Below, piece by piece: positions 1-64,000 of a DNA stretch of 64,000 nucleotides; the stretch's first letter is position 1; the number at the start of each line of letters is the position of its first letter. The stretch is from an uncultured Acidobacteriota bacterium (GTDB lineage: Bacteria > Acidobacteriota > UBA6911), in assembly GCA_963843575.1 (NCBI GenBank), contig CAWJKZ010000024.1, forward strand, positions 181,313 to 245,312, in the 5' to 3' direction. The position numbers and the translations under genes were made by a program. Below the pieces are notes generated by a model. It was not told the origin of the DNA. It was given only the letters and a program-made list of their open reading frames with translations, and did not search any database.

Positions 1-126
1 TCGTCTACAACTCCGGGGAGATGTCGCCCGTCGAGCCCGACGCGACGCGAGGTCGCCAAGGTCGGCCGCAACGATCCCTGCCCGTGCGGGAGCGGCAAGA
101 AATTCAAAAAGTGCCACGGTAAATAG
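1..126 (+). CDS. secA: Preprotein translocase SecA, C-terminal zinc-binding tail (partial, runs off the window start)
   Basis: Frame 1 translates to ...[25 protein letters not shown] followed by a stop at 124-126. This is the characteristic SecA C-terminal CxCxSGKK(Y/F)KxCHG zinc motif. Upstream residues look frame-disturbed. Confidence 0.6.
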
Positions 127-205
127 GTGCCTGCGTCGGGTTTCCGCCGATCCCGCCCGGACAGGCTTCGAGGCCCGAACTTCATTCCGATCGACAGAAA
201 AAGCC

Positions 206-1684
206 ATGGTGAGAGATTTCAACTTCAAGGAAGCGCTTGACCTTCGACGACGTACTCCTGCAGCCCGACAAGAGCGATGTCATCCCTTCGGAGGTCGACA
301 TCTACGACGCGCCTGACCCGCAGGATCCCCCTCAACATACCCCTCCTCAGCGCGGCCATGGACACCGTGACCGATTCCCGCATGGCCATCGCGCTCGCCC
401 AGCAGGGCGGGCATGGGCGTCATCCACAAGAACCTGACGCATCGAAGCGCAGGCCGACGAGGTCGACCGGGTCAAACGGTCCGAGAGCGGGATGATCGTC
501 AACCCGATCACCATGTCGCCCGACCAGAAGATCCACGAGGCGATGGAGGTCATGAAGAAGTTCCGGATCTCCGGCGTCCCCATCACGTCCAAGGGCAAGC
601 TGGTCGGGATCCTCACCAACCGCGACCTCCGGTTCGAGACGCGGCTCGACCTGAAGATCTCCGACCTGATGACCAAGGACAACCTGATCACGGTGCCGGT
701 CGGGACGACCCTGGAGAAGGCCATGGCCATACTCCACCGCCACCGGGTCGAGAAGCTCCCGGTCGTCGACGACAAGTACCGCCTCAAGGGGCTGATCACG
801 GTCAAGGACATCCAGAAGAAAATCGCCTACCCGAACGCCTGCAAGGACGAGCTCGGGCGGCTGCGGGTCGGCGGCGGCCATCGGGGCGACGGGGGACTTC
901 CTGGAGCGGGCCGCCGCGCTGATAAAGGCCGGAGTGGACGTCCTGTTTATCGACACGGCGCACGGTCACTCGACGCGCGTCCTGAACGCGATCAAGAGCA
1001 TCAAGCGCACGCTTCCCCGACGCCGAACTGATTGCCGGCAACGTGGCCACCGCCGAGGGCGCCGCCGCGCTCATCCGGGCGGGCGCCGACGCGGTCAAGG
1101 TCGGGATGGGGCCCGGCTCCATCTGCACGACCCGGGTGGTTACCGGCGCGGGCGTGCCCCAGATTACCGCGATCCTGGAGTGCTCGCAGGTCGCACGCCG
1201 CTACCAGCACCCCCGTCATTGCCGACGGCGGCATCAAGTATTCCGGCGACGTGACGAAGGCCCTCGCCGCGGGCGCCGACGCCGTCATGGTCGGGTCGCT
1301 GTTTGCCGGCACCGACGAAAGCCCCGGCGAAACGATCCTCTATCAGAACCGCAGCTACAAGGTGTACCGGGGCATGGGTTCGCTCGAGGCCATGAAGGCC
1401 GGGAGCCGCGACCGGTACGCCCAGGAAGGAACGTGTCTTCGAGGGCAAGCTCGTCCCGGAAGGGATCGAGGGCATGGTCCCCTACAAGGGGAGCATCGAG
1501 GTGATGATCCCCCAGCTCACCGGGGGGCTGCGCGCCGGCATGGGCTACTGCGGCTGCCACAACATCCGCGAACTGCAAGACCCGCACCCGCTTCATCCGC
1601 ATCACCAGCTTCGGCCTCAAGGAGAGCCACGTGCACGATGTCCTCGTGACCAAGGAAGCCCCCAACTACCGCACGGAACTGTAA
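206..1684 (+). CDS. guaB: IMP dehydrogenase. The reading frame is interrupted by about 6-7 single-base indels, probably assembly errors.
   Basis: Fragments across three frames carry the hallmarks [36 protein letters not shown], the CBS region [46 protein letters not shown] and [16 protein letters not shown] at 206, stop TAA at 1682-1684. Confidence 0.85.
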
Positions 1685-61705: not shown

Positions 61706-63839
61706 TTCTGCCATGCGGCCCTTTGTCTGCGATCCCCGCCTCTCGGCCTTTCGCGTCCAGCGCGACCTGGCGCTGCTCGTGCTCGTGGTCGCGGCTTTCT
61801 CGTTGCCGTTCCTGGGGCAGCCGTTCCACATGGACGACAACTTCTACCTGGACATGGCGCGCAACGCCCTCGACAAACCGCTGTTCCCCAACGACACCCC
61901 CTACGTGTTCGAGGGCCGTCTCCTCCCCGACATGGGCTCGCACTCACACCCGCCGCTGCACACGTACTTCCTGGCGCTGGTGCTCCGGTTGACGGGCGGC
62001 GGGGCGGGGACCGAATGGGTGTTTCACGTCTGCGCCCTGATATATCCGCTGATGGCGGTGGTCGGTTTTTACTTCATTTCGATGCGGTTCCTGGAAACGC
62101 CGGTCTGGCCCGCCCTGATGCTGGCGTGCACGCCGCTCTTCATGGTGATGCAGCACACCCTGATGACGGACGTCCCGACCCTCGCCTGGTGGCTCGTCGC
62201 GATCGCCCTGTTCCTGCGCGGCACCGACCGGGGCAGCCGGCGCCTGCTCGCCGCCAGCTCGGCCTTCCAGTTCGCGGCGATGTTCACGAGTTACCAGTCG
62301 GTGGCGCTTACGCCCCTGCTCGCGTACTACCACGCGCGCAAGGGCGGCCGGCGCGCGGGCTGGTTCGCGCTGGCGGCCCCGCCGCTTCTGCTGGCCGCGT
62401 GGTTCGGGATGAACTACGCGCACTACGGCCGCTTCCTCCTGGCCGACACCGCCGGGTACATCGCCTCGCGCGACCCTCGTTCCGCCGCCGCGCTCTGGAC
62501 GAAGCTTCTCGCCCTCCTCCAGTACCAGGGCTGGCTGGCGGTGTTCCCCGTTTTCCTGCTGTACGTCTTCGCCCGGGGCCTGCGCGGGCGCGTGCCGGCG
62601 GCGGCGGTACTGGCGGTGATCTGCGTGACGCAGGCGGCCGTCCCGCAGTATCGCATCCCGGACAAGGCCATTTTCGCGGTCGGCCTGCTGGCCGGGGCGG
62701 CGGTTCTCGTGCACCTGGCCCGTTTCTGCGCTATGGCGTTCAGAAGGCCGGCGGAGTCCGGTTTCGGGCCGGTCGAGGGGCAGTTCATCGCGCTCTGGTA
62801 TTTCGGGGCGGCCACCTTCTGCCTGCTGATCTTCACCGAGGGCTCCGCGCGCTACATCCTCCCGCTCGTGCCGCCGCTGCTGATCTATTTCTTCCGCCGG
62901 CTCGAGATCGCGGAGGCCTCGGAGTACCGCAGCGTACCCCGGCCGCTGCTCGGCGCCGCCATGGTCGCCAGCGGCAGCGTCGTGATGTCTCTCGGCTGGG
63001 GGCTGCTTCTCTCGCACGCCGACCAGGAGTTCGCGCGCGTGTATCCTCGGGCCGCCGGCGAATTCGCCCGCATCACCGGCGGGATGGACTCCTATTACGC
63101 GGGCGAATGGGGTTTTCGCTATTATTTCGGCCGCGAGGGTGCGAGGCAGCTCCCCGTCGACGAATCGGCGGCCCGCGGCGGCAGCTGGCTGGCCCGCCCC
63201 AGGCTCGCGCTCCCCTACGACGTCCCCGCCGCGCTCTGGACGATGGCCATGCCCGTTCAGGCGCTCTCCTACGACGTAGGCACCCCCATCCGGCTGCTCG
63301 ACTCGCAGGCGCCGGCGGGTTTCTACTCGACCTCGTGGGGGCTGGTCCCCTTCTCGCTCTCCCGCGCCAGCCTTGACATCATCGACGTGCGGCAGGTCAA
63401 CTATCTTGTCGAGCGGCTCCCGTGGGCCCGGATCGATGCTCCTCCCGGAGACGCTCCCTGGCCGGGATTCGCCGAGATCCAGGGCTCCGCGCCACTCGCC
63501 CTCCTGGTGAAGCCGGGCACCCGGGTGCGCTACCCGTGGGAAGGCACCCGCGCGATGGAGTTGCACCTGAAGCTCGGCATCCCCGCCGACTCCTGGGCGG
63601 AAGGCGAAGGGAGGCCCCTGGACGTCCGGATTGTCCAGCGCGACTCGTCGGGCGATACCCTGGCCCGCTTCGAGAAGACCCTCAACCCGGGCATCCGCAA
63701 GGAAGACAGGGGCTGGGTTCCGGTCAGCCTCGGACTCGCGGGAGGCTCGGGTCCGGACGGTGTGCTGGAATTCGAAGTGCGCGGCGCTGCCGGAGGAAGG
63801 GCCGCATTCGCGCAGGCTCTGCTGAGGGCGGCCCAATGA
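61698..63839 (+). CDS. GT39/GT83-family (PMT/ArnT-like) integral-membrane glycosyltransferase, second paralog (713 aa)
   Basis: HMDDNFYLDMARN motif in the first periplasmic loop, multiple TM helices, and a large C-terminal soluble domain. Intact. Confidence 0.6.
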   Translation: MGDSAMRPFVCDPRLSAFRVQRDLALLVLVVAAFSLPFLGQPFHMDDNFYLDMARNALDKPLFPNDTPYVFEGRLLPDMGSHSHPPLHTYFLALVLRLTGGGAGTEWVFHVCALIYPLMAVVGFYFISMRFLETPVWPALMLACTPLFMVMQHTLMTDVPTLAWWLVAIALFLRGTDRGSRRLLAASSAFQFAAMFTSYQSVALTPLLAYYHARKGGRRAGWFALAAPPLLLAAWFGMNYAHYGRFLLADTAGYIASRDPRSAAALWTKLLALLQYQGWLAVFPVFLLYVFARGLRGRVPAAAVLAVICVTQAAVPQYRIPDKAIFAVGLLAGAAVLVHLARFCAMAFRRPAESGFGPVEGQFIALWYFGAATFCLLIFTEGSARYILPLVPPLLIYFFRRLEIAEASEYRSVPRPLLGAAMVASGSVVMSLGWGLLLSHADQEFARVYPRAAGEFARITGGMDSYYAGEWGFRYYFGREGARQLPVDESAARGGSWLARPRLALPYDVPAALWTMAMPVQALSYDVGTPIRLLDSQAPAGFYSTSWGLVPFSLSRASLDIIDVRQVNYLVERLPWARIDAPPGDAPWPGFAEIQGSAPLALLVKPGTRVRYPWEGTRAMELHLKLGIPADSWAEGEGRPLDVRIVQRDSSGDTLARFEKTLNPGIRKEDRGWVPVSLGLAGGSGPDGVLEFEVRGAAGGRAAFAQALLRAAQ

Positions 63840-64000
63840 ACGCCGCGATCACGAAGGTGGCCGTGCTGGTGACGACCGCGGCCCTCGCCGCCTGCGGCTC
63901 CCGCCCCGAGGCCGCGCCCGGCAAGCCACCGGACCTCGATCTGCTGCCGCGGCTGGCTCTCGCGCTCGAACAGGCGGGCAGGCAGTCGGGCCGGCCCGGC
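63836..64000 (+). CDS. Lipoprotein, N-terminal fragment (continues beyond the window)
   Basis: ATGA overlap with the upstream gene. Lipobox-like AALAACGS. Confidence 0.4.
   Translation, partial: MNAAITKVAVLVTTAALAACGSRPEAAPGKPPDLDLLPRLALALEQAGRQSGRPG

Follow-up and report, generated by a model that had tools for sequence, protein, structure and literature searches.

Frameshift errors in metagenome-assembled genomes (MAGs) built from long reads depend on coverage and are commoner in soil (PMC9262707, PMC13087279), and the authors of the Microflora Danica long-read catalogue, which was generated from Nanopore data with Flye --meta --nano-hq and one round of Medaka, describe Nanopore-associated errors in its low-coverage MAGs (PMC12313526). 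Here we describe a 64,000-nucleotide stretch of DNA, referred to below as the window, from an uncultured Acidobacteriota bacterium of lineage UBA6911 (GenBank assembly GCA_963843575.1, contig CAWJKZ010000024.1, positions 181,313 to 245,312), in which genes interrupted by frameshifts, among them guaB, the core genes of a type II secretion system (T2SS) and a cus operon, alternate with blocks of genes that each occupy a single reading frame; we attribute the frameshifts to errors in the sequence and not to gene decay. The window is 65% G+C, with a G+C content at third codon positions (GC3) near 0.89. A sister MAG of an uncultured Acidobacteriota, MFD00905.bin.2.153 (L001), comes from the Microflora Danica catalogue and is collinear with window positions 1-15540 at 85-88% nucleotide identity, and a second Acidobacteriota MAG (L002) is collinear with the window at about 70% identity.

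The coding frame hops every 100-500 bp in exactly the stretches that an earlier note on this DNA had named as broken, and the other open reading frames (ORFs) keep one frame. In total there are 77 frame-breaking events, affecting 13-14 of about 49 genes. The frame was traced along the window with GC3 frame plots and a seven-state Viterbi segmentation of codon usage, and events were called by frameshift-aware protein-to-DNA alignment with intact orthologues as guides. As a control, eight genes that are intact in both genomes were aligned and gave no frameshifts. With references of less than about 65% identity the aligner calls false deletions where continuous ORFs are divergent and of low complexity, and calls at 33157-33251 and 35476 were discounted. 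The genes listed as broken in the earlier note are all confirmed, but the list omitted a gene at 49830-51036, with an extra base near 50436, and probably another at 16897-17605; its range of 3624-9979 holds for gspE, gspF, gspJ and gspK but not for gspG, gspH and gspI (6645-8121), which lie inside it and are intact. The four intervals that it gave as free of frameshifts (1857-3634, 10004-11989, 21082-36132 and 51489-63839) contain no credible event by alignment, Viterbi segmentation or Pfam domain content.

The events are strongly clustered, as the same note had proposed. The event-free runs at 20911-36667 (15.8 kb) and 50436-64000 (13.6 kb) would arise under a uniform rate with P about 1e-8 and about 1e-7 respectively, several stretches of 2-3 kb are likewise free of events, and counts in 1-kb bins are over-dispersed (variance/mean 3.3, chi-square P=4e-17). 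Density takes at least three levels. In the clean stretches it is zero, at 17.9-20.9 and 36.7-47.3 kb it is about 2 per kb, and at 0.2-1.6, 8.5-9.9 and 12.7-15.3 kb it reaches 6-9 per kb. The average is 6.6 per kb in the latter three patches versus 2.1 per kb in the other two (P=7e-6), and such a graded density is what a steep dependence on read depth would produce. The patches begin and end inside genes, with gspE and gspF each affected only within 0.2-0.6 kb, and one cluster spans gspJ, gspK and the intergenic spacer, ending approximately 10 bp before gspL.

Insertions make up about 85% of the events: there are 60 of them (57 of one base and three of two bases, the latter resolving into adjacent single insertions) and at most 11 deletions. 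At 37 sites between window positions 235 and 15344 the extra base could be pinned by DNA alignment to the sister MAG. The inserted bases are G at 13 sites, A at nine, C at nine and T at six; 27 of the 37 sites lie outside any homopolymer and just two are in a run of three, so the homopolymer association that is the classical signature of Nanopore, 454 or Ion Torrent data is not seen at these sites. No motif was found within 8 bases of them, the information content being at most 0.13 bits and below the 95th percentile of the null, and codon phase is split approximately 1/3 to 2/3, matching random placement. The errors are thus of a random-insertion kind and not of the systematic homopolymer kind.

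The extra bases are private to this contig, and are absent at the orthologous positions in both MAGs and in the further references used for alignment (P0122, P0123, P0002, P0003, P0014 and L083). The sister MAG has a small cluster of its own, with three one-base insertions, none in a homopolymer, inside a 385-bp part of its guaB gene (945, 1255 and 1328) and none in the remaining approximately 15 kb, where its T2SS genes are intact. Because its guaB sites differ from those in the window, the errors were not inherited. Two independent assemblies thus have a broken guaB gene, with different sites affected, which may be a coincidence, or a conserved gene may attract mixed reads.

The explanation that we favor, with a probability of roughly 85%, is consensus error in a long-read metagenome assembly, arising where local read support was poor. 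Where too few reads covered a position, or the reads were too noisy, the polisher would have failed to outvote spurious single bases and these would have entered the contig, and adequately supported stretches would have come out clean. The patches would then follow local read depth or quality, varying at the scale of read length in what we presume to be a low-abundance soil or sediment population, and the platform and pipeline were presumably similar to the Nanopore, Flye and Medaka combination behind the sister MAG. This cause of the patchiness is one that we infer, and it is unproven. Several points weigh against it. Consensus errors in Nanopore data are classically homopolymer indels (PMC9262707). 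Insertions that match a neighboring base, and so extend a homopolymer, are below chance expectation at the pinned sites (10 of 37 versus 17.1 expected, P=0.015), contrary to the usual error signature of long reads. Insertion density also reaches 0.9% locally with no detectable excess of substitutions and no matching excess of deletions, which is unlike a raw single read and may point to an insertion bias of the consensus algorithm in place of raw read noise.

A different assembly history is possible but unlikely, namely a hybrid workflow in which short-read contigs or polished stretches alternate with unpolished long-read gap fills, or with regions to which short reads did not map. Some of the clean-to-dirty transitions are indeed sharp, such as that between 9994 and 10004, and clean blocks of 2-15 kb are of a plausible size for short-read contigs. 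However, a patchwork implies two states of density and three are seen, at 0, about 2 and about 6-9 per kb; dirty patches of 0.2-0.6 kb occur within the otherwise clean gspE and gspF genes, and the sister MAG has the same type of error even though it was made without short-read polishing. We also considered whether the clean blocks were made by reference-guided frameshift correction, but the best-conserved genes (guaB, gspE and cusA) are broken and lineage-specific genes are clean.

Of the three causes that the earlier note offered for the uneven pattern, differences in coverage and collapsed strains are both plausible, whereas a chimeric contig gains no support. Collapse of strain or species heterogeneity, with reads from relatives piling onto common segments and the polisher emitting extra bases, is nevertheless similarly unlikely. 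The breakage of guaB in both this contig and the sister MAG is in its favor, as is the abundance of metagenomic relatives of cusA, very many of which are 85-93% identical. Event density shows no significant correlation with conservation against the sister MAG (Spearman 0.23, P=0.21), which lends no support to the idea that conserved segments attract errors, and the poorly conserved gspK is the worst affected gene. The inserted bases are 41% A/T, whereas wobble positions are 88% G/C, and this composition together with the codon phase rules out a variant in which each insertion represents two alleles of a synonymous single-nucleotide polymorphism written side by side.

It is very improbable that the frameshifts are genuine mutations that have turned the affected genes into pseudogenes, in a lineage undergoing decay or relaxed selection, even though they are present in the deposited sequence and some bacteria carry many pseudogenes. 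Mira, Ochman and Moran reportedly found in 2001 that bacterial indel spectra are deletion-biased, and such mixed, deletion-biased indels contrast with a spectrum consisting almost wholly of 1-bp insertions. Nor is there any sign of relaxed selection. With the second MAG as outgroup, private amino acid changes in the window versus the sister MAG number 43 versus 61 in broken genes and 28 versus 41 in intact genes (Fisher P=1.0). The frame-restored ratio of nonsynonymous to synonymous substitution rates (dN/dS) against the sister MAG is 0.14 for broken genes and 0.13 for their intact neighbors, and only one stop remains in 7,191 codons after frame restoration. (The dN/dS of 2.9 obtained for gspJ is invalid because the reference coordinates in the sister MAG are out of frame; the gspJ event positions agree with in-frame references.) Moreover, nine independent events in guaB with protein conservation unchanged would all need to be extremely recent. 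Because there is no excess of amino acid change, dN/dS is equal and stops are nearly absent, the broken genes are not pseudogenes; the frameshifts are errors, a conclusion that the earlier note had drawn from the damage to guaB and the T2SS core and that now has support beyond the essential nature of these genes.

We regard a chimeric contig, joining different organisms or assemblies of unequal quality, as having very little chance of being correct. The alternation of clean and dirty blocks is the sole point in its favor, and the compositional signatures that had been suggested as a means of detecting such a join are alike in the two classes. Tetranucleotide profiles of 4-kb chunks correlate equally well within a class (r 0.903) and between classes (r 0.906; permutation P=0.61), with a pooled r of 0.98. 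Broken and clean blocks have nearly equal GC3 (0.885 and 0.886 respectively), and synonymous divergence (dS) to the sister MAG is 0.40-0.57 in both. Synteny with the sister MAG is furthermore continuous across at least six clean/broken transitions within 1-15.5 kb. None of these comparisons points to a chimeric join.

Scarcely credible is the proposal that the insertions are real and fixed, either through a very recent burst of untemplated single-base insertions in kb-scale tracts, which an error-prone repair or synthesis patch could conceivably make, or in a lineage that tolerates them by read-through. Programmed recoding, by +1 ribosomal frameshifting or by transcript editing that removes the extra bases, would leave the genes functional but has nothing else in its favor, and it is excluded because the sites lack a common motif and none is conserved in any orthologue; codon phase is also random-looking, and part of the extra bases are in intergenic DNA.

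The broken and clean segments are listed below in order along the window.

Broken genes and frameshift-free blocks in the 64,000-nucleotide window
Feature	Coordinates	Strand	Observation
guaB (IMP dehydrogenase)	206-1684	+	9 single-base insertions, 0 deletions, 6 per kb
ECF sigma factor, zf-HC2 anti-sigma factor, 195-aa ORF (orf3047)	1842-3634	+	0 frameshifts vs L001 orthologues
gspE, gspF	3624-6593	+	3 single-base insertions each, in short patches
gspG, gspH, gspI	6645-8121	+	0 frameshifts vs L001 or L002
gspJ, gspK	8264-9979	+	densest patch (8488-9944, about 9 per kb); 12 insertions, 2 deletions
gspL (PilM/PilN-type protein), gspM	10004-11989	+	0 frameshifts vs L001, 89-90% amino acid identity
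gspC-like gene and secretin gspD	11993-15574	+	aligned to intact L001 and L002 secretins
Probable extra broken gene, two transmembrane helices and bacterial PH domain (weak bPH_6)	16897-17605	+	GC3 frame switch near 17090
1129-aa secreted-type protein	17612-21008	-	7 single-base insertions, 0 deletions
15-kb block, 13 genes	21082-36132		each gene single-frame; no credible frameshifts vs syntenic L006
cusA, cusB, 1495-aa multicopper-oxidase-like gene, FG-GAP-like gene	36378-47899	-	about 24 events, roughly 2 per kb
TPR protein, small ORF, second ECF sigma factor	48025-49742	-	TPR and sigma genes: 0 frameshifts vs L002
Gene with single insertion near 50436	49830-51036	+	vs L002 19549-20922; Viterbi change at 50436/50437
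Ten-gene glycan locus, 12.4 kb	51417-63839	+	all single ORFs; frames change solely at gene boundaries

The insertions in guaB, where seven or more indels had been noted previously, are at about 235, 302, 408, 438, 872, 1008, 1203, 1438 and 1575. All nine are recovered as one-base insertions by alignment to the intact 508-residue GuaB of the second MAG (83% identity), and the Viterbi frame changes coincide with them. Those in gspE are at 4021, 4030 and 4579, and those in gspF at 6041, 6124 and 6255; both genes when restored to frame are 94-95% identical in amino acid sequence to the intact genes of the sister MAG, and the extra bases are visible in the DNA alignment. The counts in these first three genes (nine, three and three) are multiples of three, but the pattern fails in later genes, which have seven and four. 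The gspJ gene has four insertions and one deletion and gspK has eight insertions and one deletion, and in the next affected segment the gspC-like gene has one insertion, at 12652, and gspD about 15 events between 13471 and 15344.

The gene at 16897-17605 probably changes frame once: its N-terminal part is protein-like in one frame to about 17090, and the C-terminal part, with the weak bPH_6 match, is in the next. Insertions in the gene for the 1129-residue secreted-type protein are at 20911, 20180, 19315, 18904, 18878, 17987 and 17948, with alignments to P0122 (88% identity) and P0123 in agreement. Events in the segment containing the cus operon were called against P0002, P0003, P0014, L083 and the second MAG, and comprise five insertions and one deletion in cusA, five insertions and two deletions in cusB, six insertions and one deletion in the multicopper-oxidase-like gene, and at least three events in the FG-GAP-like gene, a count that is approximate because the reference is of low identity. 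Neither the fragments of the gene at 17.6-21 kb nor those of the FG-GAP-like gene had a Pfam match, so domain continuity was of no use there, and a homologue search and the second MAG served instead. The insertion near 50436 is isolated, with 3.1 kb of clean sequence on one side and 13.6 kb on the other.

Genes in the clean blocks are each contained in one ORF, and most have whole Pfam domains or a frameshift-free alignment to a homologue, with a few having neither check. In the first block the Pfam domains of the sigma and anti-sigma factors are complete and the 195-residue ORF has no Pfam hit. The 15-kb block includes genes for an amidohydrolase, two AAA ATPases, an FGE-sulfatase protein, an SPFH/zinc-ribbon protein and a Ser/Thr kinase, and six of its genes have Pfam hits, all to whole domains, the remaining genes having none. 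The alignment of this block to L006 found no frameshift in the genes at 25-36 kb. The glycan locus encodes three GT2 glycosyltransferases, two methyltransferases, two epimerase/dehydratases, two PMT_2 proteins and one product with no Pfam hit; nine of the ten genes have a complete domain, the exception being 51417-53204.

Most of the 15-kb block (22378-36132) is syntenic with positions 1-12160 of L006, a contig from a sediment or soil metagenome, which was the only syntenic contig recovered in a metagenome scan with the kinase gene; its synteny is with the clean block only, and the other matches were mostly paralogous kinases. The earlier note called this island ESCRT-like, a putative assignment. 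Within it the AAA ATPase genes at 23850-24998 and 27020-28240 each adjoin genes for small proteins with low G+C content at second codon positions and no Pfam hit (23252-23848, 25721-26338 and 26375-26995). The SPFH/Band-7 protein, which has double zinc ribbons, is encoded at 30902-33031 and the Ser/Thr kinase at 34477-36132, with the FGE-sulfatase-domain protein in the same island. In the second MAG, homologues of the window genes at 46.3-51.0 kb (FG-GAP-like, TPR, ECF sigma factor and a 457-residue protein), at 15653-20922, directly follow the T2SS cluster, whereas in the window approximately 30 kb, containing an FHA gene, the 1129-residue protein gene, the AAA/SPFH island and the cus operon, lie between the two. 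The gene order suggests an insertion or rearrangement between the two lineages.

Two deposited products from a single 520,231-bp NCBI/ENA contig match ORF fragments of the window at 100% identity, and the broken frames are therefore already in the public record. P0001 (588 residues) corresponds to 36864-38630 on the reverse strand and is about half of a CusA protein of roughly 1,090 residues. P0121 (748 residues) corresponds to 17926-20172, also on the reverse strand, and contains approximately 145 Arg/Gly/Pro-rich out-of-frame residues between two parts that closely match P0122. Public protein databases thus already hold both truncated and mixed-frame products of this contig.

The significance of these observations is for data-quality control only, the artefact being of a known kind with a somewhat unusual error spectrum. 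The reading-frame annotation can be trusted in the clean blocks, which include the AAA-ATPase/SPFH/kinase island, the glycan locus, gspG to gspI, gspL and gspM, and the sigma/anti-sigma cassette. An uncorrected annotation would report the 13-14 affected genes, guaB, the T2SS core and the cus operon among them, as pseudogenes or fragments, and they should instead be read as intact genes that contain sequence errors. The earlier expectation of dozens of false pseudogenes is too high, although dozens of ORF fragments would be a fair description. Without correction of the frames, pathway completeness and the number of pseudogenes in this MAG would be wrongly called. Correction tools that focus on homopolymers would not repair a profile that consists mainly of insertions outside homopolymers.

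Among known systems, prfB-type programmed +1 frameshifting resembles the window in having one extra base to be skipped, but such sites are single, conserved and motif-dependent, whereas those in the window are many, private and motif-free. Mycobacterium leprae and recent symbionts are similar in having many genes interrupted by frameshifts, yet genome decay brings deletions, stops, raised dN/dS and the early loss of dispensable genes, none of which is seen in the window. The indel errors of long-read sequencing, Nanopore or PacBio, as measured by the IDEEL test, share with the window the one-base indels that split the ORFs of conserved genes; the textbook case has homopolymer-length errors with deletions and insertions mixed, whereas the window has approximately 85% insertions, 27 of 37 sites outside homopolymers and no excess of substitutions. 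The guaB cluster of the sister MAG differs in being one small cluster in 21 kb where the window has many, and in its sites, but it has the same type of error and the same patchiness as the window.

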